Source: a plasmid
DNA: 45,040 nucleotides
Sequence record: NZ_CP133434.1
Direction: 5' to 3' (one strand)
In this document: positions 1-38,989 of the stretch, one piece after another
Numbering within the stretch: the first letter of the stretch is position 1
How the letters are laid out: each line of letters opens with the position of its first letter
Made by a program: the position numbers and the translations under genes
The notes under the pieces: model-generated
What the model saw: the letters and a program-made list of their open reading frames with translations, nothing else
Database searches by the model: none
What the model was told of the DNA's origin: nothing

Positions 1-855
1 ATGAGGCTTCAGGTGAAAACTGTAACAGGGTTAACGAAAGTCAGGCATAGAAATGAGGTTGGCGTTACTCTGGCATCTCTTTCTCTTTCTGCGAAACGGG
101 TTTTATTTCTCGCACTTTGTCAGATTGATACAAAGGAAATGTTGAATGATGATATTTTGGAGGTTGATGCTGATTTTTTTTCTAAGACAACTACTTTGGA
201 TAAATATGCTGCATATGCGGCCTTAAAAGAAGGTGCAAAAGTTCTGGCTTCAACGACATTAGTTTTAAATAGAGATGATTTAAAAACCCTATCTAATGAA
301 TTGGGAATATCAACATCTAAAAACAAGATACCTGACAGATTAGATTTAAATTTAACCGAATTTTGTGCCTATTATGATCATTTGGCTACTGTTCGTATTA
401 AATTTACTAATACTGCAAAAAGATACTTTTCAAAACTTATTGGCTCTGAAAACAGATATACAACACAGGTGTTAAAATCTGTTGTTATCTTGAACAGTGT
501 AAACTCCACAAACTTATATCAGGTTATCAGAAAATACTATAGTTTAAACCCTGCGAGTAAATCCTTCGAAATTTCAGTTGACCAACTGAAAGAGGAAATG
601 GGGCTTTATAATATTGAAAATGGTGAGAAGGTATACAGATATCCAAAGTACTCTTTTTTTATTCGTGATGTTATAAACAAAAGTATAAGAGAAATCATAG
701 AAAAGACAGAGATAAGGGATATAAAATTTTCAGTGGCAGGAAAAAAAGGACGTATGGTGCATATGCTAAGATTTGATTTTTCTCTCAATGAAGATATTTC
801 TCTTTCTGATGATGAAGCTAAATTCTTGGAAGAGTTTGATAAAAAAGTCCTCTAG
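1..855 (+). CDS. pir: Pi-type replication initiator (Rep_3 family), R6K Pir-like
   Basis: N-terminus MRLQVK...KVRHRNEVGVTLASLSLSAKRVLFLAL aligns with my recall of the R6K pi protein (MRLKV...KIRHRNELNHTLAQLPLPAKRVMYMAL). The 22-bp iterons sit upstream if the window is circular. Confidence 0.85.
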   Translation: MRLQVKTVTGLTKVRHRNEVGVTLASLSLSAKRVLFLALCQIDTKEMLNDDILEVDADFFSKTTTLDKYAAYAALKEGAKVLASTTLVLNRDDLKTLSNELGISTSKNKIPDRLDLNLTEFCAYYDHLATVRIKFTNTAKRYFSKLIGSENRYTTQVLKSVVILNSVNSTNLYQVIRKYYSLNPASKSFEISVDQLKEEMGLYNIENGEKVYRYPKYSFFIRDVINKSIREIIEKTEIRDIKFSVAGKKGRMVHMLRFDFSLNEDISLSDDEAKFLEEFDKKVL

Positions 856-879: not shown

Positions 880-1326
880 ATGGCTAAAATCTATCAATTC
901 CCTCAGGGGGAAGAACGTGCTAAATTCAGGAAAGAAATAGCCAGGGAGCGTAAGAAACGTTTTGCAGTGAAAACAGGGAGCACTTTTGTTAAGTGGCTTG
1001 GCTGGGGATGGTTTTATCTTCGTCTTCTTGTCGCGAGTGTTTTACATTTTATCTTTGTTTTTGTGTTAGCCATTCTTGGTGCGTTTAAATGGGCTGTATT
1101 CTGGCTGGGTAGTATTTTGTGTGTCATCACCTGGTATCATCTCGATCACCAGTTATGGACGCCACAAAATCTGACTATACCGGTGATTACGGCAACCTGG
1201 ATTTTGGGACTGCTGGCTGAGCCTCTGATGGAGCTGCTCAACAAAACTATGCCCTGGCACAAGTTACTTGTTCCCGAACCTGCGGACGAAAGCACCGAGA
1301 ACAGTAGCGAGATAAGCCAGCAATGA
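880..1326 (+). CDS. bis: Bis-like replication auxiliary membrane protein
   Basis: 148-aa ORF 25 nt downstream of pir with an SD (gaggtaact) and hydrophobic core. Its position matches R6K bis. Confidence 0.5.
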   Translation: MAKIYQFPQGEERAKFRKEIARERKKRFAVKTGSTFVKWLGWGWFYLRLLVASVLHFIFVFVLAILGAFKWAVFWLGSILCVITWYHLDHQLWTPQNLTIPVITATWILGLLAEPLMELLNKTMPWHKLLVPEPADESTENSSEISQQ

Positions 1327-1358: not shown

Positions 1359-1472
1359 TTCACTGCGATGCAGGATAGGGCAAACGCCGCAAAATGACGT
1401 CTCTGACGCCATTCCGAAACGTTTGCCCGATGACCTACAGTCGGTTCTTGTTGGAGAGTTTTATGAAATATT
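1359..1472. repeat. Left copy of ~114-bp inverted repeat (candidate ori-beta element), ~93% identical to the reverse complement of 41007-41120
   Basis: Direct base-by-base comparison: ttcactgcgatgcaggatagggcaaacgccgcaaaatgacgtctctgacgccattccg...cagtcggttcttgttggagagttttATG. Confidence 0.8.
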
Positions 1473-1819
1473 TGGTCAAAGAGTTTATTAACGAAAAATA
1501 TACTAAGGCTGTTAATATTTTAAAGGATAACCTTAAAGAACACTATCATGTTTTTTATTGTGTGAGATTAAGTGAGATTCTTTTTCCTGCCAGTGAATAT
1601 GGAACTGAACAGTTTTTTAGTGATTTTGAAAAGATAAACTCCATTTCATTACCTGTCTTAGTGTTTGATCTCAAAGAGAGTGTTCCTGTGATTGTCATTA
1701 GTCTTGATGATGTCAGCTACTGTGATGTTCTGGACGAAATGGATATTGATTTTATGAAATGTGATTCGCTGGCAGAATTGCTTACCAGCGATAAGCTGGA
1801 TGCGTTATTTAAGGATTGA
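1463..1819 (+). CDS. Hypothetical protein whose SD and ATG are supplied by the inverted repeat
   Basis: The track ORF 1394-1819 shares its first 23 codons with the taxA ORF only because both read through the repeat. The probable true start is ATG 1463 (MKYLVKEF...), preceded by ggagag. Confidence 0.45.
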   Translation: MKYLVKEFINEKYTKAVNILKDNLKEHYHVFYCVRLSEILFPASEYGTEQFFSDFEKINSISLPVLVFDLKESVPVIVISLDDVSYCDVLDEMDIDFMKCDSLAELLTSDKLDALFKD

Positions 1820-5249: not shown

Positions 5250-5375
5250 CTTACACTGCCTGTCATATCGGTTGTTCTTCGGTGTTGGTTGAAGACAGTT
5301 CCACTCCAGCCAGAGCCACCAACTCAGGGCTGGAAAACACAAAAAAGCCCGATTACCCGTCGGGTTTTTTTTGTG
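5250..5375 (+). ncRNA. Candidate agrB-like antisense sRNA ending at a bidirectional terminator (5346-5373)
   Basis: Stem gcccgattacccgtcgggc followed by T8 on the plus strand. The element overlaps the toxin 5' leader and is repeated at 16620-16712. Confidence 0.3.
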
Positions 5376-6868: not shown

Positions 6869-7018
6869 CTTGGGGTCTGACGCTCAGTGGAACGAAAACT
6901 CACGTTAAGGGATTTTGGTCATGAGATTATCAAAAAGGATCTTCACCTAGATCCTTTTAAATTAAAAATGAAGTTTTAAATCAATCTAAAGTATATATGA
7001 GTAAACTTGGTCTGACAG

Positions 7019-7891
<873 letters not shown>

Positions 7892-8061
7892 TCAATATTA
7901 TTGAAGCATTTACCAGGGTTATTGTCTCATGAGCGGATACATATTTGAATGTATTTAGAAAAATAAACAAATAGGGGTTCCGCGCACATTTCCCCGAAAA
8001 GTGCCACCTGACGTCTAAGAAACCATTATTATCATGACATTAACCTATAAAAATAGGCGTA

Positions 8062-8782
<721 letters not shown>

Positions 8783-11700
8783 ATGCCCGTTGACTTTCTG
8801 ACCACTGAGCAGACTGAAAGCTATGGCAGATTCACCGGTGAACCGGATGAGCTTCAGCTGGCACGATATTTTCACCTTGATGAAGCAGACAAGGAATTTA
8901 TCGGAAAAAGCAGAGGTGATCACAACCGTCTGGGCATTGCCCTGCAAATTGGATGTGTCCGTTTTCTGGGCACCTTCCTCACCGATATGAATCATATTCC
9001 TTCCGGCGTCCGGCATTTTACCGCCAGACAGCTCGGGATTCGTGATATCACCGTTCTTGCAGAATACGGTCAGAGGGAAAATACCCGCCGTGAGCATGCA
9101 GCGCTGATACGTCAGCACTATCAGTATCGTGAATTTGCCTGGCCCTGGACATTTCGCCTTACCCGTCTTTTATATACCCGGAGCTGGATAAGCAACGAAC
9201 GTCCTGGCCTGCTTTTCGATCTGGCGACAGGGTGGCTTATGCAACATCGTATTATTCTCCCCGGAGCCACTACGCTGACCCGGTTGATTTCAGAGGTAAG
9301 GGAAAAGGCGACGTTGCGCCTGTGGAACAAACTGGCACTGATACCGTCAGCCGAACAGCGTTCACAGCTGGAGATGCTGCTGGGGCCAACTGATTGCAGC
9401 CGCCTGTCTTTACTGGAATCACTGAAAAAGGGCCCTGTGACCATCAGTGGTCCGGCGTTTAATGAAGCAATTGAACGCTGGAAAACTCTGAACGATTTTG
9501 GCCTGCATGCTGAAAACCTGAGTACACTCCCGGCTGTGCGCCTGAAAAATCTCGCACGTTATGCTGGTATGACTTCGGTGTTCAATATTGCCAGGATGTC
9601 ACCGCAGAAAAGGATGGCGGTTCTGGTTGCCTTTGTCCTTGCATGGGAAACGCTGGCGCTGGATGATGCATTGGACGTTCTGGACGCCATGCTGGCCGTT
9701 ATCATCCGTGACGCCAGAAAGATTGGGCAGAAAAAACGGCTCCGCTCGCTGAAGGATCTGGATAAATCTGCATTGGCGCTCGCCAGCGCATGTTCGTACC
9801 TGCTGAAAGAAGAAACACCGGACGAATCGATTCGTGCTGAGGTGTTCAGCTACATCCCAAGGCAAAAGCTGGCTGAAATCATCACGCTTGTCCGTGAAAT
9901 TGCCCGGCCCTCAGACGATAATTTTCATGAAGAAATGGTGGAGCAGTACGGGCGCGTTCGTCGTTTCCTGCCCCATCTGCTGAATACCGTTAAATTTTCA
10001 TCCGCACCTGCCGGGGTTACCACTCTGAATGCCTGTGACTACCTCAGCCGGGAGTTCAGCTCACGGCGGCAGTTTTTTGACGACGCACCAACGGAAATTA
10101 TCAGTCGGTCATGGAAACGGCTGGTGATTAACAAGGAAAAACATATCACCCGCAGGGGATACACGCTCTGCTTTCTCAGTAAACTGCAGGATAGTCTGAG
10201 GCGGAGGGATGTCTACGTTACCGGCAGTAACCGGTGGGGAGATCCTCGTGCAAGATTACTACAGGGTGCTGACTGGCAGGCAAACCGGATTAAGGTTTAT
10301 CGTTCTTTGGGGCACCCGACAGACCCGCAGGAAGCAATAAAATCTCTGGGTCATCAGCTTGATAGTCGTTACAGACAGGTTGCTGCACGTCTTTGCGAAA
10401 ATGAGGCTGTCGAACTCGATGTTTCTGGCCCGAAGCCCCGGTTGACAATTTCTCCCCTCGCCAGTCTTGATGAGCCGGACAGTCTGAAACGACTGAGCAA
10501 AATGATCAGTGATCTACTCCCTCCGGTGGATTTAACGGAGTTGCTGCTCGAAATTAACGCCCATACCGGATTTGCTGATGAGTTTTTCCATGCTAGTGAA
10601 GCCAGTGCCAGAGTTGATGATCTGCCCGTCAGCATCAGCGCCGTGCTGATGGCTGAAGCCTGCAATATCGGTCTGGAACCACTGATCAGATCAAATGTTC
10701 CTGCACTGACCCGACACCGGCTGAACTGGACAAAAGCGAACTATCTGCGGGCTGAAACTATCACCAGCGCTAATGCCAGACTGGTTGATTTTCAGGCAAC
10801 GCTGCCACTGGCACAGATATGGGGTGGAGGAGAAGTGGCATCTGCAGATGGAATGCGCTTTGTTACGCCAGTCAGAACAATCAATGCCGGACCGAACCGC
10901 AAATACTTTGGTAATAACAGAGGGATCACCTGGTACAACTTTGTGTCCGATCAGTATTCCGGCTTTCATGGCATCGTTATACCGGGGACGCTGAGGGACT
11001 CTATCTTTGTGCTGGAAGGTCTTCTGGAACAGGAGACCGGGCTGAATCCAACCGAAATTATGACCGATACAGCAGGTGCCAGCGAACTTGTCTTTGGCCT
11101 TTTCTGGCTGCTGGGATACCAGTTTTCTCCACGCCTGGCTGATGCCGGTGCTTCGGTTTTCTGGCGAATGGACCATGATGCCGACTATGGCGTGCTGAAT
11201 GATATTGCCAGAGGGCAATCAGATCCCCGAAAAATAGTCCTTCAGTGGGACGAAATGATCCGGACCGCTGGCTCCCTGAAGCTGGGCAAAGTACAGGTTT
11301 CAGTGCTGGTCCGTTCATTGCTGAAAAGTGAACGTCCTTCCGGACTGACTCAGGCAATCATTGAAGTGGGGCGCATCAACAAAACGCTGTATCTGCTTAA
11401 TTATATTGATGATGAAGATTACCGCCGGCGCATTCTGACCCAGCTTAATCGGGGAGAAAGTCGCCATGCCGTTGCCAGAGCCATCTGTCACGGTCAAAAA
11501 GGTGAGATAAGAAAACGATATACCGACGGTCAGGAAGATCAACTGGGCACACTGGGGCTGGTCACTAACGCCGTCGTGTTATGGAACACTATTTATATGC
11601 AGGCAGCCCTGGATCATCTCCGGGCGCAGGGTGAAACACTGAATGATGAAGATATCGCACGCCTCTCCCCGCTTTGCCACGGACATATCAATATGCTCGG

Positions 11701-11788
11701 CCATTATTCCTTCACGCTGGCAGAACTGGTGACCAAAGGACATCTGAGACCATTAAAAGAGGCGTCAGAGGCAGAAAACGTTGCTTAA
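8783..11788 (+). CDS. tnpA: Tn3-family transposase TnpA
   Basis: Starts MPVDFLTTEQTESYGRF at ATG 8783. The track ORF has a spurious 53-codon N-terminal extension. Confidence 0.92.
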   Translation: MPVDFLTTEQTESYGRFTGEPDELQLARYFHLDEADKEFIGKSRGDHNRLGIALQIGCVRFLGTFLTDMNHIPSGVRHFTARQLGIRDITVLAEYGQRENTRREHAALIRQHYQYREFAWPWTFRLTRLLYTRSWISNERPGLLFDLATGWLMQHRIILPGATTLTRLISEVREKATLRLWNKLALIPSAEQRSQLEMLLGPTDCSRLSLLESLKKGPVTISGPAFNEAIERWKTLNDFGLHAENLSTLPAVRLKNLARYAGMTSVFNIARMSPQKRMAVLVAFVLAWETLALDDALDVLDAMLAVIIRDARKIGQKKRLRSLKDLDKSALALASACSYLLKEETPDESIRAEVFSYIPRQKLAEIITLVREIARPSDDNFHEEMVEQYGRVRRFLPHLLNTVKFSSAPAGVTTLNACDYLSREFSSRRQFFDDAPTEIISRSWKRLVINKEKHITRRGYTLCFLSKLQDSLRRRDVYVTGSNRWGDPRARLLQGADWQANRIKVYRSLGHPTDPQEAIKSLGHQLDSRYRQVAARLCENEAVELDVSGPKPRLTISPLASLDEPDSLKRLSKMISDLLPPVDLTELLLEINAHTGFADEFFHASEASARVDDLPVSISAVLMAEACNIGLEPLIRSNVPALTRHRLNWTKANYLRAETITSANARLVDFQATLPLAQIWGGGEVASADGMRFVTPVRTINAGPNRKYFGNNRGITWYNFVSDQYSGFHGIVIPGTLRDSIFVLEGLLEQETGLNPTEIMTDTAGASELVFGLFWLLGYQFSPRLADAGASVFWRMDHDADYGVLNDIARGQSDPRKIVLQWDEMIRTAGSLKLGKVQVSVLVRSLLKSERPSGLTQAIIEVGRINKTLYLLNYIDDEDYRRRILTQLNRGESRHAVARAICHGQKGEIRKRYTDGQEDQLGTLGLVTNAVVLWNTIYMQAALDHLRAQGETLNDEDIARLSPLCHGHINMLGHYSFTLAELVTKGHLRPLKEASEAENVA

Positions 11789-11830
11789 CGTGAGTTTTCG
11801 TTCCACTGAGCGTCAGACCCCAACTTAAAC

Positions 11831-11875: not shown

Positions 11876-11973
11876 ATGGACAGAATTACCTGAGTGTCCA
11901 ACCCATTGCGGCGCAGGGATAAAGCTGTAAACTTTTACTGATGAACAAAGTAGCCCGTTGGGCATAAGACAAC

Positions 11974-12324
11974 ATGGAGCAAACCTTGGCTAAGGTAACC
12001 AGAATTCAGGCCGGAAGATACGCAGTCGATGATGGGCGTTGCATTATAAAAAATAACTCTGGGTGGCTTATTGTCGATGCTAATGGCGCTCATGATTTTG
12101 GACCTGTCCCCACATTAGCAGCAGCTAAGGAATATGTTGAGTCTGGTACTGTTCCGCTAAGGCAGCACAATTTTTCTACATCTCATGGTCGAAGACAAAG
12201 TAAAAAAGAATTTAATGCGTATTTGGCATCTGAAGCTAAAAATGGCAATCCAATGCCAGCCATTCTTTGGATAATTGTCCTTTGCATCATCTGCGGCATT
12301 GTAGTTGCAGTTCGAGGTTATTAA
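11974..12324 (+). CDS. Hypothetical protein with C-terminal TM anchor
   Basis: 116 aa. The C-terminus is AILWIIVLCIICGIVVAVRGY. Confidence 0.4.
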   Translation: MEQTLAKVTRIQAGRYAVDDGRCIIKNNSGWLIVDANGAHDFGPVPTLAAAKEYVESGTVPLRQHNFSTSHGRRQSKKEFNAYLASEAKNGNPMPAILWIIVLCIICGIVVAVRGY

Positions 12325-12407
12325 TCTTGGACAGAAAATGCTGTATGTCCAGTCAGCCGGAGAATTATACTAGCGACCATGATCATCACAGGAAGAACGC
12401 GTAACAG

Positions 12408-12917
12408 ATGGCAACTGAGTGGGTAGATGTGGCTGATAATGCCGTTAAAATTGGGCTGGGTGCATTAATCACCATTGTTGGTGGCTGGATTACACTGAAA
12501 TTAACACACTGCCACGAAATAAGAAAAGATGCAATAGCTCAGCGACTGCGGGATATAGATAAAAAAACTGACCGCTATATAGATTTTCTTTCTTCATCGC
12601 AAACGCTAATGCAGAAATATCTTTATGAATCATGTGATCCAGGTAGCGAGGACTACACCAATTATATGCGGTTGCATAATATTGTAAGCCTGACATCCTC
12701 CCCTGAATTGCGAATCTATGCTTTTGATACTCAGTCCAAAGTATCGCAATTTATCCTGCTCAGAAAGCCCAACGAACCAGAGGTTATTGATTCCTGTCGC
12801 AATGCCGCGAGAAACGCCGTTTCTGTGCTTCAGGGGGCAGTGAGTGCTGAATTGCTTCAGGATAAAGCAGCACTTCAGGACAAACAACATGCATGGTGGG
12901 CTTTCTGGCGAAAATAA
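12408..12917 (+). CDS. Hypothetical protein with N-terminal TM helix
   Basis: 169 aa. Residues 14-30 are hydrophobic. Confidence 0.4.
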   Translation: MATEWVDVADNAVKIGLGALITIVGGWITLKLTHCHEIRKDAIAQRLRDIDKKTDRYIDFLSSSQTLMQKYLYESCDPGSEDYTNYMRLHNIVSLTSSPELRIYAFDTQSKVSQFILLRKPNEPEVIDSCRNAARNAVSVLQGAVSAELLQDKAALQDKQHAWWAFWRK

Positions 12918-13022
12918 AGCAGAACAGTGGAGGAAGAGCCATTTATCCAAGTAGCGAAAGACAGTTAAAGCCTTGGGAAAAAATGTCGATAATCCGAGCA
13001 ATATTCTATCGTAGGAAGAAAA

Positions 13023-14924
13023 ATGGAAATAGTATCATTTAAAGTTTCTCAGTATAGGTCTATTTCAGGGGAGATATCCTCTGATAACTTTAATGGATTA
13101 ACCATTGTTGGGCAAAACAACAGTGGTAAAACAAACCTATTAAAAGCTATGAGGGTTTTTTTTGAAGGAAAATTTAATCCTGACTTATATGACTATGAAA
13201 AAGATAAGCCACATGGTGTTAAGCAAGGACAAACTAGTTTTGCTGTAAGATTTACTTTTTCTGAAAGTGAGCTAGATGATGTCTCTGAGGATTTGAGCCA
13301 AGACGATGATGATGACGATGATGACTCGATTATTGAACTTGGTGTTTTAGGGGAGCAAGAAGAACCTAGTAATTCTATTTCATTTGATGATGGCAGCTCT
13401 AAACAACAAGAATCAAAACCAACTCAATCAAGAGGCAGAAAGCTAAGTTTGAGAGATAGATATTTGCAGCTGTTTAACATGATTGATGACTCCAGGTTAA
13501 ATTCACCTCAAAACGAAGTGACCGTACATCTGACAATATCTAATAAAAACAATTACTTTTACACTGTCTTTAAAGGTTACAAGAGGAAACCTGAAGTAAC
13601 TTCCTCCATGTATACATCTGTTGAAAGAAGGTTCATAGAAAAAATACTTTCTAGTTTTGAGTGTGTGTATATACCATCGTCAAAAAGTATTGATGATATA
13701 TATCATAATCTATTAGTTCCATATGTTAGGAGTGAAGTAGCTTCAGCCATGAAAACATCGGTTCAAGTGATTCATGATAAACTGTTGGAAGTGTCTGAAA
13801 AGATAACAAATGAAATGATTCTAAGCGGTATAGATGACTGTAGCTTTATGATTAAAGCTCCGCCATCTCTTGATGAGTTATTTGGTCGCTTTGAGGTTTC
13901 AATAAAAGATACTATTGAGAATGTGATATCGAGTAAAGGTATGGGGCTACAATGCTTATCTTTATTTTCTTCATTTAAATCTATTTCAGAGAGAAAACTT
14001 ACTCTAGGTAAGAAAACGATTTGGATGGTTGAGGAGCCTGAGTCTTTCTTGCATCCCTCATTAGGCCGGTCATGTAATCACATTTTCAAATCACTGATGG
14101 ATGTTGCTTATGTTCTTATTACAACTCATTCCTTATCATTTGTCAGTGATGAGCCAAGTAAGATCATTGAGTTATATAAAGATGACGCCGGTGTTACAAA
14201 AGATAAAAAGCATGAAAAAAGATTTAATGCAGTTGCAAGCATAAGAGAAAATCTTGGGGTCAGATTTTCTGATTTCTTTAACATATCAAGTAGTGCAGTT
14301 TTCGTTGAAGGTATCACCGACAAACAATATATAGAATCAATATTGAAATTGACATCTGAAGATGATGAGTTTAAGAACAGATGGCCTTTTCTGAGGAGTG
14401 CTAAAGTTGATGAGTTTGGTGGAGTCAGTCAACTTGGGGGATTCTTGAAAGGGTGCTACGAGTTTATTTCTAAAGATGTCCCCGTAATATCTGTTTTTGA
14501 CGGTGATGAAGCTGGGGTCAAAGAAAGAACCAGATTACAAAGCTACTTTGGTAAAAAACAAATTAGATTTGAGTCAAATAAAGACTATATTTCTGTAAGA
14601 AGTGGTTTTGCTATTGAAGGCCTCTTCCCTGACGATTTCATTTCTGACGCAATGGAAACCCATCCGTCGTGGTTTATCGGAGGAAAATCTGTTGATGCCG
14701 ATGATGTAATTGAACCATTCAAAGTGCAAGATAATAAAAAAACTAACTTATTAAATTTCTTCCTGGAAAAATGTCGTGTTCAACCTATATGCGGTTGGAT
14801 TTCTCGGTGGGAAAAGGTGTTTAACGTCATAGACTCAGCCTTGCGAGATAAAAGTGAATCCATCACAAACAAAAAACGAACCGAAGATATTTCCGGTAAC
14901 ACTTCAGATCATCAAGCTGCATAA
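13023..14924 (+). CDS. OLD-family (or fused PARIS AriAB-like) ABC-type ATPase plus Toprim nuclease, candidate anti-phage protein
   Basis: Walker A GQNNSGKTNLLKAM. ABC signature/Walker B region IWMVEEPESFLHP with H-loop ITTHS. C-terminal Toprim VFVEGITDKQYIE with ISVFDGDEAG. A poly-Asp insert DDDDDDDD is present. AT-rich. Confidence 0.7.
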   Translation: MEIVSFKVSQYRSISGEISSDNFNGLTIVGQNNSGKTNLLKAMRVFFEGKFNPDLYDYEKDKPHGVKQGQTSFAVRFTFSESELDDVSEDLSQDDDDDDDDSIIELGVLGEQEEPSNSISFDDGSSKQQESKPTQSRGRKLSLRDRYLQLFNMIDDSRLNSPQNEVTVHLTISNKNNYFYTVFKGYKRKPEVTSSMYTSVERRFIEKILSSFECVYIPSSKSIDDIYHNLLVPYVRSEVASAMKTSVQVIHDKLLEVSEKITNEMILSGIDDCSFMIKAPPSLDELFGRFEVSIKDTIENVISSKGMGLQCLSLFSSFKSISERKLTLGKKTIWMVEEPESFLHPSLGRSCNHIFKSLMDVAYVLITTHSLSFVSDEPSKIIELYKDDAGVTKDKKHEKRFNAVASIRENLGVRFSDFFNISSSAVFVEGITDKQYIESILKLTSEDDEFKNRWPFLRSAKVDEFGGVSQLGGFLKGCYEFISKDVPVISVFDGDEAGVKERTRLQSYFGKKQIRFESNKDYISVRSGFAIEGLFPDDFISDAMETHPSWFIGGKSVDADDVIEPFKVQDNKKTNLLNFFLEKCRVQPICGWISRWEKVFNVIDSALRDKSESITNKKRTEDISGNTSDHQAA

Positions 14925-14997
14925 TCGATTGTGTGCACCAAGGTTGCACATACACCTGATTAATCAAGAGTGAGACCATAACAAGCCTATATCAGAT

Positions 14998-15030
14998 AAC
15001 AGCCCTCTTCATAAGAGGGCTGTCTTTTTC
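14998..15030 (+). terminator. Rho-independent terminator after the OLD-like gene
   Basis: acagccctctt-cat-aagagggctgt followed by ctttttc. Confidence 0.6.
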
Positions 15031-15310
15031 GCGGGCATCGTACTTGGGTTCCACTTGGAAAATGGAAAACATCCTACGCTAAGAGCGTTTTTTAAACAAC
15101 CGGCTTGTTGGTTTTTACGAGATACTGTGCAGTTGAAGGAACAAGATAAAGGAATTAAAGACCCTTTAGTACCATACTTTCATGAAATTTTCCCATATTT
15201 TCTTTTAGATCGTGCAACAGCGAAAAGACGTAGGAATTGGCTTGATTAGCCGCAATACTATTTCTGGACAGAATGGCGAGGAATTAAACGAGAGGCGTAA
15301 AAAAGGCCGC

Positions 15311-15490
15311 TTACGCGACCTCAGCCTTTTGCGGTTTTGGCTTGGTGATATACCACGATAGACAACCGACAATAAAACTCATGAACATTCCAGTAAAACG
15401 ATCATCGATGCCTGGAAACAGGCAACCGACAAACATCGCAACAGGGAAAGGAAGAAGTAAACAGCGCCCCAAAATGCTCATAAAATCCAT
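15311..15490 (-). CDS. Small hydrophobic membrane protein (59 aa) immediately downstream of toxin module 2
   Basis: Strong SD aaggaggtg 5 nt before ATG (MDFMSILGR...). Preceded by the hairpin gggcaggaagtgcaccgcttcctgccc. Confidence 0.35.
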   Translation of the reverse strand: MDFMSILGRCLLLPFPVAMFVGCLFPGIDDRFTGMFMSFIVGCLSWYITKPKPQKAEVA

Positions 15491-15556
15491 AACACCTCCT
15501 TTGTTAAAGGGCAGGAAGCGGTGCACTTCCTGCCCTTAGTTACGTTTCCGCAGTCA

Positions 15557-15652
15557 TCAATCGATGAACTGACGGATCAGTTCCAGAACTGCAATCAGCG
15601 CGTTTGCAAGCGCAGCTACCGCCCTCAGAACGATGATTAACAGGTTAATCAT
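15557..15652 (-). CDS. DinQ/TisB-like type I toxin paralog (31 aa, MINLLIIVLRAVAALANALIAVLELIRQFID)
   Basis: Hand translation. The SD sits inside the hairpin ctccatttatggag, as in module 1. Confidence 0.5.
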   Translation of the reverse strand: MINLLIIVLRAVAALANALIAVLELIRQFID

Positions 15653-15957
15653 CCGTTTTCTCCATAAATGGAGTAAAGACACCGTGGCTTGCTCTTACGC
15701 TGCCTGTCACCACGGCTTCTCTTCGTCTTGTCAGTTGTAGAGAGTCTCACTCCTACCAGAGCACAGATAACCAGCACCACCTGTATTACCTGTCAGGACT
15801 TTGAAGCTGTTCATGCCGCATTTAGCGGAATGCAGGGAAAGACTCACCACAGCACTAACCCTCTGATTATACGTTTATCTAACTTTCAAGCAAACCGTTA
15901 ACGCGTAGTCACCGCCTGTCATATTGCATAATCAGGCTTCACGGATTATCATACTGT

Positions 15958-16050
15958 TGTCAGTTGTAGAGAGTTTCTCTTCCGGGCGAGTTACCAGCTC
16001 GTACCGGAACTGTAAAAAAGCCGACCTCACCAGTCGGTTTTTTTACGTCT
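15958..16050 (+). ncRNA. Candidate agrB-like antisense sRNA (second of two tandem repeats) with terminator
   Basis: Repeat unit beginning gtcagttgtagagagt (also at 15730). Terminator ccgacctcaccagtcgg plus T7 at 16018-16048. Confidence 0.3.
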
Positions 16051-16212
16051 GCAGTTTCCCGCTTCATTTAGATCTATTTTAAATGAATAAATTTTCTGCG
16101 GCAAACCCAACGACGTTGGGTCGTTAGTGTAAATAATTGTTCAAAACTCATAAACACTCCTTTGTTAAAGGGCAGGAAGCGGTAAACGTCTCTCCCTTAG
16201 TTAAGCCATCAA

Positions 16213-16296
16213 TCACTCGATTAGTTTCTGAATGGCAATCAGCGCGTTTGCAATGGCGAGCACAGCCCTGAGAACGATGATTAACAGATTCATCAT
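16213..16296 (-). CDS. DinQ-like type I toxin paralog (27 aa, MMNLLIIVLRAVLAIANALIAIQKLIE)
   Basis: Hand translation. No SD hairpin is recognisable, so this copy is possibly degenerate. Confidence 0.4.
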   Translation of the reverse strand: MMNLLIIVLRAVLAIANALIAIQKLIE

Positions 16297-16614: not shown

Positions 16615-16712
16615 GAGTGTTGGGTGTAGAGTATCTTCCTCCAGTCAGAGCCACCAACTCAAGGCTGGAAAACACAAAAAAGCCAAATTACCAGTCGGTT
16701 TTTTTTGTGCTT
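16615..16712 (+). ncRNA. Candidate agrB-like antisense sRNA, a copy of the 5281-5375 element
   Basis: ~85% identical to 5281-5375. Preceded by TAGACA...CATAAT promoter-like hexamers flanking the palindrome ctagacaacaggtgtctag. Confidence 0.3.
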
Positions 16713-16916: not shown

Positions 16917-18245
16917 ATGAGCCGCAGGGAATTGTTCAGCGAATTTCTTGAAAATTTGAATCTTGACCTTAAACAGGCAAAAAAGATCAGCTATCACTAT
17001 CGAAAAATAACCAAGTCATTAAATCTTGCGTTCAGAGGAACGAGTTCCCGGGTAGCAAACCGCTTGAAAGTGGGGTCAGTAGGCAGACATACTGCAATAA
17101 AAGGCATATCCGATCTGGACATGCTTTATATTATGCCCCCCAATCAGTATGAATATTATAACCGTAAGGATAATGGTCAGGCTGCATTGCTTACAGATGT
17201 CAGAAACATTTTAGCGGAAGAATATCCTGACCAGACGGTGAAAAAGGACAGACTGGTTGTTCAGATCATCTTTAAAAACTTTTATGTCGAGGTTCAACCT
17301 GTATTCAGACAGGATGATGGCAGCTTTAAATTCCCTGAAAGCTATAATGGGGGAGCATGGCGCATTACAAAACCTCTTCACGAAAAGGCGGCTATGACCG
17401 CATTTTCGCGAGATAAATCCAATAATCTGCGCAAGCTGTGTAAAATGATCAGAGCCTGGAAGAACCTGCATGGCGTCAATATGGGGGGCTTACTGATAGA
17501 TACACTGGCGTATCGATTTCTTTCATCAACATCAGATTATGACAATACCGGAAATGGCAGCCTGGGAGCCCTCGCCAGAGACTTTTTTGAATATCTGTCA
17601 AATGAGGAGAAAAGGGAAAGGTATCTCGCGTTAGGCAGTAATCAGTATGTACGTGTTAAATCTCCCTGGTTTGGCCGGGCAGCGAAACATGCGTATGAAT
17701 TATGTTGTGATGCCTTAGACGCTGAGGGGTCTGCCAGTGAAAATGACCTCTGGCGCGAAGTGTTCGGACGAGCCTTCCCCAGACGTAAGGTGGGTATTAT
17801 GGAAGCCAGCCTTGGTCTGGAATCGCATGCGGCAGATGCAGCTCCCTGGATCGATACCGAAGAATTTATAGAGGATAAATATCCGGTGGATATCAGGCAC
17901 TCACTCAACCTTGACTGTACCGTAACCCAAGATGGTTTCCCTCCCAGAAGCCTGAGAGAGATGCTTACTAGAGGATTTCGCCTCTCCGCTCGGAAATCTC
18001 TCCTTTTCCGGGCAGACTTGACAGAAATGGAGGCAGAGGAACCCTACACCGTTATGTGGAAGGTACTGAACGTGGGTGACGAAGCACGCAGAAGAAATAT
18101 GATCCGGGGACAAATCGTTTCGGACGGCGGCTACTGTACAAAGAAAGAGGCCACCGACTTCCGCGGAGATCACGTGGTAGAATGCTATGTGATAAAAAAT
18201 GAGGTTGTGGTTGCCCGGGCCCAGATTGAAGTTCCCATAAACTGA
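16917..18245 (+). CDS. SMODS / CD-NTase-like nucleotidyltransferase (CBASS-type cyclase) with a C-terminal extension
   Basis: Pol-beta NTase signature GSVGRHTAIKGISDLDMLYIM (GS...DxD). Third acidic motif at VEVQP. SD aagga. AT-rich upstream region. Confidence 0.6.
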   Translation: MSRRELFSEFLENLNLDLKQAKKISYHYRKITKSLNLAFRGTSSRVANRLKVGSVGRHTAIKGISDLDMLYIMPPNQYEYYNRKDNGQAALLTDVRNILAEEYPDQTVKKDRLVVQIIFKNFYVEVQPVFRQDDGSFKFPESYNGGAWRITKPLHEKAAMTAFSRDKSNNLRKLCKMIRAWKNLHGVNMGGLLIDTLAYRFLSSTSDYDNTGNGSLGALARDFFEYLSNEEKRERYLALGSNQYVRVKSPWFGRAAKHAYELCCDALDAEGSASENDLWREVFGRAFPRRKVGIMEASLGLESHAADAAPWIDTEEFIEDKYPVDIRHSLNLDCTVTQDGFPPRSLREMLTRGFRLSARKSLLFRADLTEMEAEEPYTVMWKVLNVGDEARRRNMIRGQIVSDGGYCTKKEATDFRGDHVVECYVIKNEVVVARAQIEVPIN

Positions 18246-18252
18246 GGTTTTT

Positions 18253-18828
18253 ATGACGCAATCAGAGATGCTGAAATTAATTGCCAGACATGGTTATAAC
18301 GTTGGATTTGGCGCTAAGAAAAACTTTGCCACCTATGATCTAATTTGTAAGGCATCCGGTTGGATTAGCTTTATTTCTCTTGCTGTCGGTGTGTTCGCTC
18401 TTTTTATTCCTGAGCTAGCCACAAACGTAATTTCCGCGATATTAATTATATTTGGTGTTGCTACAATGTACATTCAGTTTTATGACTCGGAAAAGCAGAG
18501 TTATGAAAGTGCGGGGATTGAGCAGACAAAAATTTTTAATGAACTTGAAGTTATTTACCGCAACGTAAAAAGCGATGCAAACTTTGACTATCAGCATACA
18601 CAACAATCCATCGACGCTATCATGTCCCGGTTTTACGGCACGGTCATCAGCAAACAGATCTTCGGAAGTAACTGGTACGCACATTATAAATTTTACTGTG
18701 AATTTGAGAAAGCATGGGTTGAAGAAGAACTAAACTTGACACTGAAGGACAAAATCCCGCTTTCGCTCTGCTTTCTCGCCGGTCTGGCAATCATTTTCAT
18801 TATAGCTGTCATCTGGAAAATGCTCTGA
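18253..18828 (+). CDS. 2TM plus C-terminal TM membrane effector (SLATT-like), partner of the SMODS gene
   Basis: Follows the NTase after a 7-nt gap. Hydrophobic helices at residues ~36-77 and 168-188. Confidence 0.5.
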   Translation: MTQSEMLKLIARHGYNVGFGAKKNFATYDLICKASGWISFISLAVGVFALFIPELATNVISAILIIFGVATMYIQFYDSEKQSYESAGIEQTKIFNELEVIYRNVKSDANFDYQHTQQSIDAIMSRFYGTVISKQIFGSNWYAHYKFYCEFEKAWVEEELNLTLKDKIPLSLCFLAGLAIIFIIAVIWKML

Positions 18829-19001
18829 TGCTGCAGCCGATGAAAAATTAAGCAAGCTGACTGGCAAATATGCGATGTATAACCGGTATCATTATCCAGT
18901 GTACGTTCTATAAGGGGTGAGTTTGGATATGAGCTATAAATCTAATAAAAAGGCAGGGGGAAAAGATAGGATTTTTCACGTAGTCTCCGATAAAGTGACT
19001 A

Positions 19002-19826
19002 TTGATATTTAGCAATGAACATAAGGAAGGTACTGTGGGAACAACAAAAGATTGGGTTATACAAGTCGAGGAAAGTCGCCGTGAGGAATGGATACGAGAG
19101 CGGCTTTCCAGCCCAGATCTTGAGGAAGATTCTGAAGAATGGCAGTTACTTGAAAAGGACTATGACGAGTATCAGGATTTTCTTTCTGATATGGCTATGG
19201 AAGAATATGAAACCGAAAAATGGTTAAAACAGCATCCACATACAGAAATTTATAAAATAGCAATAAACCTTTTAGAACAAATAAAAGAAGAGGGAAAACA
19301 ATCTACAAGTGAAGTTTTCATAAAAATGAAAATCGCATACATTGTGACAATAATGGAAAACTGTCTTAGCGAAATGATTAAAAGCGTTGTATTGTCACAT
19401 AACAGATATGTAGAAAATGCCATAAGAAACATAAATGAACTGAAAGCAAAGAATATCTCTCTGTCTGAATTGATAAATAAAGAGTCTAATGCAAACAAAT
19501 ATGTACAGGAGTACCTTTCAGATATTCTTTATCATAGAATCCAACTGGTAGTTGAAATATATAAAGCAGTCCTGCAACCTAAGCAATATCCACGTTTTCC
19601 ACTCAAAAATATCAATGAATTGATGAAACTGAGGCATGACATAGTTCATCGTAACGGGAAAACGAAAACAACGGATGAAAAGATACATACATTCAATACA
19701 GCTACGCTCAATGATGCGTTTAAAGTTGTAGAGGAGTTTCTTAATAACATGATGAATTTGATCAGTGATGCTGTTGAGCATCATGAGAATGAGCAGATAG
19801 CCAGAGATCTTGAAGACGAGTTTTGA
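19002..19826 (+). CDS. HEPN-motif protein A (acidic N-terminal region, C-terminal Rx4H)
   Basis: C-terminal KLRHDIVHRNG. A likely start is GTG 19032, which follows aaggaagg. AT-rich. Confidence 0.45.
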   Translation: MIFSNEHKEGTVGTTKDWVIQVEESRREEWIRERLSSPDLEEDSEEWQLLEKDYDEYQDFLSDMAMEEYETEKWLKQHPHTEIYKIAINLLEQIKEEGKQSTSEVFIKMKIAYIVTIMENCLSEMIKSVVLSHNRYVENAIRNINELKAKNISLSELINKESNANKYVQEYLSDILYHRIQLVVEIYKAVLQPKQYPRFPLKNINELMKLRHDIVHRNGKTKTTDEKIHTFNTATLNDAFKVVEEFLNNMMNLISDAVEHHENEQIARDLEDEF

Positions 19827-21202
19827 GTAGTATTTTTACTATTCTGAAGGATTCTCAGAAACAAATGGAGCAGTACATGGCAACAAAAAAATACGAACTA
19901 ACAAAAGAATACTTTTTTCATGGTGAATTTTGGCACCAACTTGATGATAACAAAGGAAGATTTTCAGCACGAATTGAATATTCACCGTACCATGGTCTGA
20001 TTCTAGATTATTGTATTTCTGACAGTGAAAGCCCCAGAACATGTGAAATATTATATGGAGTCTTAAATACTGGAGAAAGATGTACTCTAATTGGGAAATT
20101 TGATTTCACACAAGGGAATATTCATTTTGATAAAGGGATTATCCATACTGGAAGGCATGGATTTCCCATAATGCTATTCAATGATTTTTATGCTCCCGAC
20201 TCAAAGATAGAATATTGTGATTTATCCTTGCACGGATTGCAAGAATTTATCCACCCTCACGGTTTTTTCACTCAATTGAAACATTTAGAACATCCAATAT
20301 TTATCGCAAAAGGAAACCATTGGACTCTTCAACTTGTCAACCATGTATCTTTTAGCGTAATTGGTGATGATCTATTAAACATAATAAATTGCCAAAACAA
20401 AGCCGCACTGGAGAACATAATTCATCAACTAAAAAAGACAAAAGAATTATACCCTGATGCTTTTTTCTCCATTAGAAAAGAACTTGTTTTCTACTTTAGG
20501 ATAAAATCATCTAATGATTTAGGAATAGAAGACCATATATCAAAGTGCTGGGATATTTCCGGGTTATTTTCAATTCTTCTGAACAAACCGACTCTTCCTG
20601 AAGAAATAAACATAAAGTTCAAGGGAAATGGTTCGAAGACACCATGTCTCTTAACAACGGGGTTTGAACAAAGAACTATTGACCTAGCGCTGAGAGAAAT
20701 AAAACATCAACTCCTTCCAATAAACAGGAAGCATATTAATCTTGGAAAGATATTCTGCAAATGGTTCAAAATAGCAGAAAGATATATGCCATTGACAATA
20801 ACATATCAGTATGAAACCGGTTTTCGAACACTGCATCAAGCTCATACTGATATTATATTGTTTGCGACTCAATTAGAAGCAATAAACAAAACAATAGGTG
20901 GCTCAAAAAATGAAAAATACATGAAACCCATTAATGAATATGCAAGTTTGTTTCTTATTCAAGAGATAGAGATGTTTTTTAAGAAATTCAACAATAAATC
21001 TATTGGTGAAAATATTGCTACACTCAGAAATGAATTAGCACATGTTGACCGCAAAAAGGAGTTAATGAACATATTGACGATTGGTGATTATGTTAAAATT
21101 GGAAACTACCTAAAAACAATTGTAACATCTTATCTGCTATCAGATTTAGGAATCAATAACATTATTATTGAAAAATATCAGGCTCAGACAATTCAAGAGT
21201 AA
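19823..21202 (+). CDS. HEPN-motif protein B (large N-terminal unknown domain, C-terminal Rx4H)
   Basis: IATLRNELAHVDRK near the C-terminus. Start overlaps the stop of gene A (TTG 19823), with an alternative ATG at 19877 preceded by ggag. Confidence 0.45.
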   Translation: MSSIFTILKDSQKQMEQYMATKKYELTKEYFFHGEFWHQLDDNKGRFSARIEYSPYHGLILDYCISDSESPRTCEILYGVLNTGERCTLIGKFDFTQGNIHFDKGIIHTGRHGFPIMLFNDFYAPDSKIEYCDLSLHGLQEFIHPHGFFTQLKHLEHPIFIAKGNHWTLQLVNHVSFSVIGDDLLNIINCQNKAALENIIHQLKKTKELYPDAFFSIRKELVFYFRIKSSNDLGIEDHISKCWDISGLFSILLNKPTLPEEINIKFKGNGSKTPCLLTTGFEQRTIDLALREIKHQLLPINRKHINLGKIFCKWFKIAERYMPLTITYQYETGFRTLHQAHTDIILFATQLEAINKTIGGSKNEKYMKPINEYASLFLIQEIEMFFKKFNNKSIGENIATLRNELAHVDRKKELMNILTIGDYVKIGNYLKTIVTSYLLSDLGINNIIIEKYQAQTIQE

Positions 21203-22369: not shown

Positions 22370-24519
22370 TTCTTAGCCCTTGCCGGAAAACCCAGCTTCC
22401 CTGTTTTCTTATCCTCAAGGACAAGAACTGTATCATACGTTCCACCACTTTTCTTTTTAAATCCCTTAATCAAATCGGTTTTCCCTGATTTAAGCAGTTT
22501 TCCGGCCTGTGCCTGGGTGATTTTCTTACCAGAAAACTCACTCCAGATTTTAAATTCACATCCGGTACAGAAATAACCTTTCGGCCTGATAACAATATGT
22601 TTACCACAGGAAGGGCAGGGAGAGTCCAGGCGTTGAAACTGCCCTGCTGGCGCAGCGGGCTCAATCTTCATCTCGCCCAGGTCAACATCAGAAATCATGC
22701 CTGTCAGTTCACCGTACAGCTCATTAATAAACTGTTCAACCGTCAGGTCGCCATTTTCTATGGCAGCCTGCTTTTCAGACCATAATGCTGTCATATCAGG
22801 ATTAACCGCTATACCAGGCAGGGCATCAATAAGCGCATATCCGGTATCAGTAGGAATAAGTTTCCCTTTTTCCAGCGTGATATAGTTTCTTTTCTTCAGC
22901 GTTTCCAAAATGGCTGCGCGGGTAGCTGGCGTACCAATGCCGCCATGTTCATCTTTTTTGTCTTTATCTTTATCCTTCAGCAATTTTTTAATCGTTGGAT
23001 CAGTGACAAAATCCGCGACACGAACAAGCGCAGCAAGCAAGGAGGCTTCGGTGAATAACGGCGGCGGTGTTGTTTTCTTCTCATTAACAACAACTTCTTT
23101 TGTCGTCAGTGTTTCTCCTGTGCGAATTTTACAGAGCAGTTCAAAAGCGGAATCATCATTATCTTCTGATTCACCTTCGTCTGTGGTTTCCGCGCCAAGA
23201 ACCCCCTCAAATCCGCTGTCAGTTGTTTTTCTGGCACGGGCATAGAACGACTCCTCACCACACTGAATGGCAACCGATACTTCCTGGTATGCTTTTTCAG
23301 GCATGAACTGAACAAGATAGTGTTGTGCGATCGCCAGGTAAACATTGCGCTCGTCGGTGCTGAGTGCGTTAACATCAGGCACACTGGCGGTCGGGATTAT
23401 AGCAGTATGCGCAGTCACCTTTTCACTGTTAAACGCTTTGCTTTTACGTGCAGAATCAATATCCAGCGACTGAGGAAAGACTGATTTCAGGGCATCGATA
23501 ACCTGCGGCGCTTCGCTGAATTGTTCATCAGAAAGATATGAGCAATCAGAGCGGTTATAAGTAATCGCTTTATATTTTTCACGTAATTGTTGCGTAATAT
23601 CCAGCGTTTTTTGTGCCGTCATTTTGAACTTTTTGTTCATGTATTGCTGGAGTCTGACCAGGTTAAACGGCAACGGCGCAGCCGTTTTTTTATCATCAGT
23701 TGCTGCCGCTTCAACTGTAGCCGGTTTTCCTGCAAGGGATGCTGCCGTTCCGTCTGCCCACGCGTTATCAAGTAATTTACGGTCTGTCAGCGGAGCAAAT
23801 TCCCCTGGCTTCCAGTTCGCCCTGATAACATCAGCACCACGCTGAAAGACTCCGGTCATGGTGTAGTAAAAACTGGATTTATGGTTCTGGTTAGCACGGG
23901 TACGATTCACAATCAGGCCAAGAACGGGCGTCTGGACGCGCCCGACAGACAGAACGCCCTGATATCCTCTGGCTTTTGCAGGAATGGTGTAAGCACGCGT
24001 CATGGAGAAACCATAGACGGCATCAGCAACTGAACGCGCCAGCGCCTTAAGGTAAAGCCCTTTGAAATCACGATTATCTTTAAGATTTGCCAGTGCCTTT
24101 TTCACTGCCGGAAGCGTGTTGTCGTTAATCAGAACGCGCTTTACGGGTTTTGTGTTTCCTGCATATTCCAGGACTTCATCAACAAGTAGCTGTCCCTCAT
24201 CATCAGGATCGCCAGCGTGAACAATTTCAGTCACGTCTCCACGTCTGATAAGTTCGAGAATCGTTTTAACCTGTTTTGCTGCACTTTCAACAGGCTGATA
24301 CTTCACGGGATAAAGACGTAAAGGAAGCGTTTCAACCTTCCAGGCTTTGTATTCAGGATTATAGTTTTCCGGCGGTTGTGATTCGATAATATGACCAAAA
24401 CAGTTAGTCACAATGGCGTTATCACTTTCAAACCAGCCATCATGGCGGGTAAAATTGCCACCAAGTGCCTTAACAATATCATTTGCTACTGCGGGTTTTT
24501 CTGCAATAAAAAGTCTCAT
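22366..24519 (-). CDS. topB: DNA topoisomerase III
   Basis: [21 protein letters not shown] Toprim N-terminus and a C-terminal Zn-ribbon CPSCGK...CTGC. Confidence 0.9.
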
Positions 24520-26405: not shown

Positions 26406-28243
26406 AATAAAACCTCAGACTCCAGTTCTCCTACGGAGAGCATTTTTTCTTTTGACGGATATTTAAGCCCTTTCACACCAAATATTTTTTTCGTCTTATT
26501 TAGTTCCATCGTCAATGATGCCAGTTTAGGACTGACCTTCATTAATCTGTCCATAAAATACGGATCAAGGTAATAAAGTGCCTTTTCTGCTTTAACAGGG
26601 TTCGCCCCCTTCAGGATGATAAACTCTTCTTTAAAGTCCAGCGTTCCCAGCTCCTGTGGAAGCACCAGTGCTCTTCGGGCTTCACTTTCTGATTCGCCCT
26701 GTGATGTTGACCGTCCACGGCTCTTGCTTGTGCTCTTTGATGTAGTGGTAATATATCCAAGTTTTTCTGATATCTTCGCGGCATCATCCTCTTCGCTGAC
26801 AGCATAGATAATACGGCATGGATGAGCACTCATCAGCGTTTTGGCTCCCTCAATACCATAGATTTCATTTAGCTGACTGATATTCTGATAAATCGTCAGC
26901 AGTTTAAGTTTAAAACCTGCAATATACCCTGATCCCTTTTTAATAATTGGCATATAACCAATCGAAGGGAACTCATCAAGAAACATCAGGCAGTCATGTT
27001 TCAGGGTGGGATCAAAATCAGGATTTTCACGCAATGTCACTTCAACAACGAAGTTGAAAAACAGGTTCAGAAAATCGTAAGCCAGAGATATATCTTCCGC
27101 ATTAACACCGACATAAACAGTGATATCTTCCCGTCGCAACTGACGGAGATCGAAATCATTACCATCAGTACATTTACGAACGGTTGGGAGATAAAACAGG
27201 CTCATTTTCTTACGGAAAGAACCATCAATGCTTGAACGCTGTTCATCTTCCGTTTCGTGATATTCCCTGATTTTGGTCAGGGCATCGCGCAAATGATACA
27301 ACGCGTTTTCATCAAGCCCGTTTGTTCCCTCCAGTTCTTCCCGCTTACTGAGTATCAGTTCCCGGTCAATATTGCTGTACAAGTCGACGACAGAACCGAT
27401 TGAGAAAACGGGTTTAAGCCCGAACTCATTAAGCCAGGACGGCTCATAGTTAATAAAGAAATGAAGCAACTTAGCCAGTCCTGTCCAGTATTGACCCGCA
27501 AGATTATTAAAGTGCGCTTCTGCCCCTGTCATGCCATAAGACGGAAACAGAATTTCAATCAGTTTAAGCAGATCCTTAGCCCCACTCTCCGCTTTTAAAT
27601 CAATATAGAAAAGGGGATTAAACTGGTGTGTTTTACTGTTGAAAGGGTCGAGCAGATAAACTTTATTACCCAGCAGTATTTCACGCACCTTACTGGTAAT
27701 TTTCCACAATTCCTGTTTTGGATCTAACGCAATCAGAGAGTGTTTTCTGACCAGAAGATTAGGGATACCAATGGCGGCACCTTTACCTGCGCGGGTTCCT
27801 GCGCCAAGTGATACAAAATCTGGTGCGGTATACCACAGGTATTTACCTTTATATGCCCCGACGAGAATATCAGTATCGTTTTCTTTCTCCCATTTCAGAA
27901 GTTTCGATTTTCTTAAATCATTATCACTGGCAAACTTCGCGTCACCATAAAGAGCAACATCTGTTTTATTCAGTTGCCAGATAATAAAAACAGGCACGAT
28001 GAGAGACGAAACCATACCTGATAAAAGAGAGGGGATAGCGGTTAACCTGATATCTGTCCGTATATTACTCTCTGTTATTATTCGCCACAGGAGCATGGAA
28101 TCAAAATTTTTCCATATATAAAGCGGCGTTTTTCCGTTCAGGAAGTAAACAGCAACAGAACCAGTATAATATGTCACGAGACACATAACCAGACCGATAA
28201 AAGCCCACTGGCCTTTATCTGGGAGTTTTAAAGACATAATCAC
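26402..28243 (-). CDS. taxB: Type IV coupling protein (VirD4/TraG family)
   Basis: N-terminal TM helices, Walker A GAGTRAGKGAA, 613 aa. Confidence 0.85.
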   Translation of the reverse strand: MIMSLKLPDKGQWAFIGLVMCLVTYYTGSVAVYFLNGKTPLYIWKNFDSMLLWRIITESNIRTDIRLTAIPSLLSGMVSSLIVPVFIIWQLNKTDVALYGDAKFASDNDLRKSKLLKWEKENDTDILVGAYKGKYLWYTAPDFVSLGAGTRAGKGAAIGIPNLLVRKHSLIALDPKQELWKITSKVREILLGNKVYLLDPFNSKTHQFNPLFYIDLKAESGAKDLLKLIEILFPSYGMTGAEAHFNNLAGQYWTGLAKLLHFFINYEPSWLNEFGLKPVFSIGSVVDLYSNIDRELILSKREELEGTNGLDENALYHLRDALTKIREYHETEDEQRSSIDGSFRKKMSLFYLPTVRKCTDGNDFDLRQLRREDITVYVGVNAEDISLAYDFLNLFFNFVVEVTLRENPDFDPTLKHDCLMFLDEFPSIGYMPIIKKGSGYIAGFKLKLLTIYQNISQLNEIYGIEGAKTLMSAHPCRIIYAVSEEDDAAKISEKLGYITTTSKSTSKSRGRSTSQGESESEARRALVLPQELGTLDFKEEFIILKGANPVKAEKALYYLDPYFMDRLMKVSPKLASLTMELNKTKKIFGVKGLKYPSKEKMLSVGELESEVLL

Positions 28244-37316: not shown

Positions 37317-37334
37317 AGTGCGCCCATCCTTTAA

Positions 37335-37664
37335 TTACGCAAGCCAGTCAGGAATATATGGTGCGACAATAAAGATGATAATTCCGATAACAAGTGGGAC
37401 TATCCATGAGGTATGTTGACGAGAAAATATCGCAATATACCCAATAACAAGAGCAATAATTGTAATTGCAGGCTTACGAATATCCGTTAAAAAATCAATT
37501 ATTTTCTGTAAAAAACCAGTTGTCTTCGTAGACACATCATCCGCAAAAGCAGGTTCTGCAACACAAAGCATCAACGCAGCCATAAATAGAGAAAGCGTTA
37601 AATAACGTTTATTCAGATTTAATTTCAACATCTTTTGTTTCCTTTTCATTTGATACAGTGCCAC
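37335..37664 (-). CDS. pilX2: VirB2-type pilin
   Basis: Long signal/leader, then two hydrophobic helices. Start ambiguous (M1, M6 or M12). Confidence 0.7.
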   Translation of the reverse strand: MALYQMKRKQKMLKLNLNKRYLTLSLFMAALMLCVAEPAFADDVSTKTTGFLQKIIDFLTDIRKPAITIIALVIGYIAIFSRQHTSWIVPLVIGIIIFIVAPYIPDWLA

Positions 37665-38949: not shown

Positions 38950-38989
38950 ACTCAATCCCCGATATACAGATGTGACAAAACACAAGCCA

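Follow-up and report, generated by a model that had tools for sequence, protein, structure and literature searches.

Transfer origins of the IncP type (MOBP) carry the nick motif YATCCTG|Y. In the IncP plasmid RP4, this motif is preceded on the transferred strand by an inverted repeat located a few nucleotides to its 5' side. The RP4 relaxase operon diverges from the repeat side and is the last part of the plasmid to enter the recipient, and an accessory gene adjoins oriT. The oriT of IncP-type systems also contains the promoter of the relaxase operon. A repeated non-coding element of another kind is found in the leading region of IncN plasmids, where the CUP elements are promoter-operator units.

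Two inverted transfer origins have been reported as a hallmark of the IncX plasmids, which spread blaNDM, blaKPC, mcr-1 and qnrS. In PMC5587640, nic-region motifs are described as conserved among IncP, Ti, R64 and pTF-FC2, and R6K is cited, via Avila et al. 1996, as a dual-oriT system with two functional transfer origins. According to citing papers, sufficiency in cis for mobilization and nicking by TaxC/TaxA have been reported for R6K. IncX3 plasmids have been annotated with oriV-alpha, -beta and -gamma as well as with oriT-alpha and oriT-beta (PMC5955891; PMC11915502). In the R6K and IncX literature examined, the function given to the repeats is that of a conjugative transfer origin, and pi-dependent vegetative initiation is not credited to them.

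We have analyzed a pair of 110-nt inverted repeats in a plasmid sequence. Its arms are very probably the oriT-alpha (41011-41120) and oriT-beta (1359-1468) of an IncX1 plasmid, corresponding to the "long inverted repeats" (LIRs) of R6K. This assignment, made by sequence comparison, is based on the presence of a MOBP-type hairpin and nick motif, the neighboring taxA and taxC genes, the homology to R6K and the distribution of the repeat core among small plasmids. The repeat is an already described and routinely annotated feature, present on both sides of the replication region in all R6K-type IncX plasmids, and no new binding site of a replication initiator; the value of the present check lies in the removal of a mistaken pi-binding interpretation.

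The plasmid and its inverted repeats

The window, that is, the whole stretch of DNA analyzed, comprises 45,040 nucleotides (NZ_CP133434.1). Its region 36000-45040, which includes the alpha-side repeat copy, is 100% identical to pBL708 (IncX1, 40,085 bp), and both sequences end at the same point. Another plasmid, pYU39_IncX, is 100% identical over 1300-1520, spanning the beta-side copy. The window exceeds pBL708 in length by 4,955 bp, a difference equal to a Tn3-type insertion of 4,950 bp plus a 5-bp duplication. Because of the identity and shared end with pBL708 and the transposon that explains the difference in length, we take the window to represent an entire IncX1 plasmid in circular form. 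The relevant features are the following:

1-855, plus strand: pir-type replication initiator (domain match to Rep3 WH1 and WH2)
880-1326, plus strand: ORF in the bis position, between pir and the beta-side copy; R6K has an ORF in the same place
1359-1468, minus strand (strand of the nic motif): beta-side copy of the long inverted repeat, very probably oriT-beta; homologous to R6K 28050-28159
1370-1377, minus strand: MOBP-type nic-region motif TATCCTG|C, predicted cut 1371|1370
1378-1428, minus strand: imperfect hairpin GGGCAAACG...CGTTTGCCC with an inner stem centered on TGACGTC, directly 5' of the nic motif
1429-1468, plus strand: gene-proximal third of the beta copy, with the stem CCGATGACCTACAGTCGG, a T-rich tract, the SD GGAGAG (1453-1458) and the ddp3 ATG (1463)
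1463-1819, plus strand: ddp3 (DNA distortion polypeptide 3), 118 aa; NF041452 DDP3 equivalog, 168 bits, 1-116/116
39302-40474, minus strand: taxC (ddp2), MOBP relaxase; PF03432 Relaxase and NF041450 (MobP1-family), 433 bits
40471-41016, minus strand: taxA (ddp1), relaxosome accessory protein, 181 aa; NF041451 DDP1 equivalog, 236 bits, 1-169/169
41011-41050, minus strand: gene-proximal third of the alpha copy, with the same stem as the beta copy, the SD GGAGAA (41026-41021) and the taxA ATG (41016)
41011-41120, plus strand (strand of the nic motif): alpha-side copy of the long inverted repeat, very probably oriT-alpha; homologous to R6K 22703-22813
41051-41101, plus strand: alpha-side hairpin, the same as on the beta side
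41102-41109, plus strand: MOBP-type nic-region motif TATCCTG|C, predicted cut 41108|41109
44728-44964, plus strand: gamma-origin iterons, six tandem 22-mers (44728-44859) and a further one (44943-44964)

The matches to the NCBIfam models of DDP1, DDP3 and the MobP1-family relaxase are all above the model cut-offs. PGAP places the start of taxC at window position 40468, and the next gene after taxC is NusG-like. The ORF at 880-1326, whose name bis is taken from the R6K-type literature, has no family match in Pfam or NCBIfam.

A repeat search of the whole window identified the two arms, 1359-1468 and 41011-41120, as an inverted pair of 110 nt with 95% complementarity (105 of 110 positions agree base by base). 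The pair is real and far beyond chance, with an expectation of ~3e-46 in 45 kb; the only other inverted repeat of at least 30 nt in the window is the terminal repeat pair of the Tn3-type element. The similarity has a sharp outer edge at 1359/41120 and an inner edge 3 nt past the ATG, and both arms terminate in GGAGA(G/A)-TTTT-ATG-AAA.

The sequence-only reading had described 1359-1472 and the reverse complement of 41007-41120 as ~93% identical, with an SD and an ATG at the end of each copy, and had placed the copies ~1.6 kb and ~4 kb from the gamma iterons on opposite sides. This description stands: 106 of 114 positions (93%) agree, ATG 1463 is that of ddp3 and ATG 41016 that of taxA, and on the circular window the iterons are 1,540 bp from the beta-side and 3,608 bp from the alpha-side copy. 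Seen from the iterons, the beta-side copy is located beyond pir and the bis-position ORF. The two copies bracket the pir/gamma-iteron region in inverted orientation, one adjoining taxA and taxC and the other ddp3.

Several other elements of the plasmid were characterized in passing. The Tn3-family transposon (6872-11821, 4,950 bp) has 38-bp terminal inverted repeats and a target duplication, AACTT; going by their sizes (286, 197 and 1,054 aa), its three ORFs may encode a beta-lactamase, a resolvase and a transposase. The Rfam family AgrB, an antisense RNA of dinQ-like type I toxins, has three matches (5285-5372, 15960-16046 and 16620-16707), beside which dinQ/dqlB toxin genes are annotated in pBL708. 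These AgrB/dinQ modules account for the direct-repeat families D2 and D4-D10 of the window. According to the pBL708 annotation, the segment at ~16917-21202 (pBL708 11962-16247) encodes consecutively a nucleotidyltransferase, a SLATT-domain protein and two HEPN-domain proteins, and looks like a defense-type cassette on the IncX1 backbone.

Hairpin and nick motif

In each copy, the nic strand reads 5'-...GGGCAAACG(33 nt)CGTTTGCCC-TATCCTG-C...3' and is complementary to the strand on which ddp3 or taxA is read. The 51-nt hairpin abuts the nic motif on the same strand in both copies and is presumed to be the recognition element of the relaxosome. Read on the reverse strand, the core of the repeat is CCCTATCCTGC, which follows immediately after the long hairpin. 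The predicted fold of the nic-strand DNA is more stable than that of shuffled sequences, with z = -3.7 for both window copies and -3.7 to -5.9 across the IncX1 and R6K copies. A scan against Rfam gave no match within the repeats.

Conservation was assessed in an alignment of 12 sequences, consisting of eight IncX copies and four small plasmids. The nic motif, TATCCTGC, is invariant in all 12, and the nick position within TATCCTG|C is predicted from the IncP-type consensus. The 8-nt motif by itself is unspecific, with 11 matches in the window versus 4.3 expected; since it is so common, the case for a nick site rests on its context and invariance. Of 11 sequences, 8-11 retain the pairs of the outer hairpin stem, and a compensatory change was seen once. 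As the sequences of this family vary little, covariation is supportive of the hairpin, but not decisive.

A smaller stem, CCG(A/G)TGACCTACAGTCGG followed by TTCTTGT, lies between the long hairpin and the SD (1427-1444 and 41035-41052). It was scored as terminator-like by the scan, and could serve as an attenuator or as a site for an accessory protein. All eight IncX copies have an identical 17-nt stretch in this region, TGACCTACAGTCGGTTC; two of the four small plasmids retain TGACCTACAGTCGG.

Comparison with R6K, other IncX plasmids and RP4

R6K (NZ_LT827129), located with a gamma-ori probe that matched at 100%, contains the same inverted repeat at 22703-22813 and 28050-28159, upstream of ddp1 and ddp3. 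The gene order is also the same: ddp2, ddp1, ~3.4 kb of intervening sequence, the gamma iterons, pir, an ORF and ddp3. Alignment to the R6K alpha and beta regions, the check that had been proposed for the repeat, identified the window copies as homologues of the R6K LIRs with 83-85% identity. Within them, a ~40-nt core, ACTGCGATGCAGGATAGGGCAAACGCCG.AAAATGACGTC, is invariant in the four-way alignment of window and R6K copies and also in the twelve-way alignment; GCCCG.TGACCTACAGTCGGTTCTTGT is likewise invariant in the four window and R6K copies.

The LIRs of R6K (IncX2) resemble the window copies in arrangement, with one copy preceding ddp1/taxA-taxC and the other preceding ddp3 after pir-bis. 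They are likewise inverted, of the same length class, contain the hairpin and TATCCTGC, and end at the SD/ATG of the downstream gene. The differences are concentrated in the inner hairpin and the leader, where the window has TCTGACGCCATTCCG and R6K has T(T/C)GACGTTATTTTTCAG, and the two copies of each plasmid carry that plasmid's own variant. The iterons of the two plasmids also differ.

Both copies are present at positions as in the window in IncX3 and IncX5 plasmids (pIT-1825-X3 and p11A1213016_D_KPC). The IncX3 copies are 95-98% identical to those of the window. The IncX5 copies keep the core, the outer stem and the leader, but differ in that the inner stem has been replaced, in both, by another palindrome, AAAATGCTAGCATTTT. 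The alpha and beta copies of one plasmid are 92-98% identical, compared to 83-85% between IncX1 and IncX2 and 76-78% between IncX1 and IncX5. Since the copies group by plasmid, and not by side, and since both IncX5 copies share the replaced inner stem, the alpha and beta copies evolve in concert. This could be achieved via conversion between them, or result from one relaxosome having to recognize both copies. We did not find concerted evolution of the two copies stated in the IncX and R6K literature examined.

So far as sequence comparison can tell, the IncX element also resembles the oriT of RP4, with a repeat and a nick motif, a relaxase operon and an accessory gene. However, apart from the short nick motif, nothing can be aligned. 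IncX plasmids have two oriTs in inverted orientation and RP4 a single one, and the IncX hairpin is longer (~50 nt) than that of RP4 and abuts the motif.

Distribution of the repeat core

Matches to the repeat were found in 2,469 plasmid records, most of which, among the matches listed, have two per record. Among these records are plasmids of 1.5-3.3 kb with unrelated replicons and no annotated relaxase, in which the ~40-nt core occurs without the SD/ATG end. These small plasmids keep the core and, in part, the hairpin; in one of them, CP063339, the core is present and the distal hairpin arm is absent. The gene-proximal third is unconserved in two of the four small plasmids aligned, and its SD/ATG end is missing from all four. 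Occurrence of the core alone in small plasmids with no annotated relaxase is expected for a cis-acting transfer origin that is used in trans. Neither a gene leader nor a pi-dependent origin would be distributed in this way, and this distribution is the strongest comparative evidence for an oriT. The tiny plasmids with the core and no annotated relaxase are candidates for mobilization by an IncX helper.

The sites in the four small plasmids are 1501-1593, 536-610, 475-567 and 1501-1552. Plasmids of this kind have replicons of the Col(MG828) or rep_cluster_2335 type and were typed as "non-mobilizable". The core of a 2.0-kb plasmid is located directly after a mobV relaxase gene.

Proposed transfer mechanism

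If the two copies are transfer origins, TaxC (DDP2) and TaxA (DDP1), probably together with DDP3, would assemble a relaxosome on each of them. The relaxosome would recognize the ~50-nt GGGCAAACG...CGTTTGCCC element, and TaxC would cut the adjoining TATCCTG|C, on the plus strand at alpha (41108|41109) and on the minus strand at beta (1371|1370). The cut strand would then be transferred 5' to 3', and, whichever copy is used, the 5.3-kb segment that they enclose would be the first to enter the recipient. This segment contains the gamma iterons, pir, bis and small leading-region genes, while taxA-taxC or ddp3, being located on the hairpin side, would be the last to arrive, as in IncP plasmids. From the alpha copy to gamma, every annotated gene is on the minus strand, and the strand transferred from oriT-alpha would thus be their template. 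The gene-proximal third provides the 5' leader, SD and start codon, so that taxA and ddp3 begin inside the site on which their products are predicted to act. The functions of the hairpin and of DDP3, the transfer direction and autoregulation, if any, are inferred from these comparisons.

Other readings of the repeat

The sequence-only reading had proposed the copies as candidates for ori-beta and ori-alpha. This was right in that they are homologues of the repeats in the R6K alpha and beta regions and are correctly placed; the function given in the literature is that of a transfer origin. As pi-dependent vegetative origins, the copies would be reached by looping of gamma-bound pi to a half-iteron within the repeat, and replication would start there. 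The position fits this reading, since the copies lie 1.5 kb and 3.6 kb on either side of gamma, as in R6K, but the iteron searches argue against it. We built position weight matrices (PWMs) from the plasmid's own seven iterons, one of the full 22-bp length and three for sub-regions of the core, and scanned both strands. The best sites within the repeat copies rank from 64 to 2,091 of ~90,000 window positions, which is background. The iteron core with up to 3 mismatches was found in the window at the gamma iterons and at three unrelated sites, none of them in the repeats, and the R6K iteron half with up to 2 mismatches has no match in the R6K LIRs. By PWM, no iteron-like site outside gamma exceeds chance in the whole plasmid; the two best hits outside gamma, at 1503 and 42264, are near the repeats, but their score is attained in 82% of simulated sequences. 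The segment that had been put forward as a pi-binding half-iteron, GGAGA(G/A)TTTTAT, resembles the iteron no better than chance. This segment, GGAGAGTTTTAT, is the SD plus spacer and the least conserved part of the repeat; it reads GGGAGTTATGATG in R6K-alpha and is lacking in the small plasmids with the core. We therefore consider it very unlikely that the copies themselves are vegetative origins. A connection of another kind, in which the alpha and beta vegetative origins depend on the relaxosome (DDP1/2/3) acting at the repeats to open or prime their DNA and relaxase-mediated exchange keeps the copies identical, is an unlikely proposal as well. Such exchange would fit the concerted evolution seen across the IncX subgroups and, if the proposal were true, oriT and oriV alpha/beta would be one 110-bp element.

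Both ddp3 and taxA take their leader, SD and start codon from the repeat, which could in principle be a duplicated promoter/leader cassette for these genes, similar to the CUP elements of IncN, with no role in DNA processing. The inclusion of an SD and a start codon in both copies is in line with this idea, as is the location of the relaxase operon promoter within oriT in IncP-type systems, and the IncN CUP elements are likewise repeated non-coding elements directly upstream of genes. However, CUP elements are promoter-operators, and the scan for a consensus sigma-70-like promoter directed toward ddp3 or taxA found none in either copy; the scan is crude, and weak or activator-dependent promoters could escape it. 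Furthermore, conservation is highest in the gene-distal 40 nt, and not in the leader, and the core persists in plasmids without either gene. A promoter as the main function does not fit this pattern of conservation, and the shared-promoter idea raised previously is most improbable as a full account of the repeat.

The repeat might also be thought to encode a genuine N-terminal extension of 23 residues shared by DDP3 and TaxA. In the ORF list, the longer ORFs 1394-1819 and 41085-40471 share the N-terminus MTSLTPFRN..., which starts at an ATG within the repeat that is in frame by chance in both window copies. This upstream ATG is also in frame in R6K-beta and in both IncX3 copies, but R6K-alpha has a frameshift, and a stop interrupts the frame in both copies of IncX5. 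Because it is broken in these relatives, the upstream frame is not coding. The curated DDP3 and DDP1 models align from residue 1 at ATGs 1463 and 41016, the SD is located before these downstream ATGs, and PGAP uses the same starts in pBL708, for which identity to the window was tested over 36000-45040. Thus, the true start of ddp3 is ATG 1463 and that of taxA is ATG 41016, the shared N-terminus is an artifact of ORF calling, and we give an encoded extension practically no credence. The sequence-only reading had explained the common N-terminus by the repeat, and the broken frames bear this out. ORF callers that choose the upstream ATG will yield the same false N-terminus.

A second repeat with promoter features

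A direct repeat of 98 nt (91% identity) is present on the minus strand at 42397-42494 and 43312-43409, within the DNA that transfer from oriT-alpha would deliver first. Each copy is upstream of an uncharacterized minus-strand ORF (42397-42068 and 43311-42988). A 73-aa ORF between the copies (42711-42490) is helix-turn-helix-like by eye and has no Pfam match. Both copies contain a near-consensus sigma-70 promoter, TTGCCA-16-TATAAT (11/12), the spacer of which is occupied by a 20-bp palindrome, ATACCTGCA(T/A)ATGCAGGTAT. This 98-nt repeat looks like a shared promoter-operator, and hence like the CUP-like element of this plasmid.
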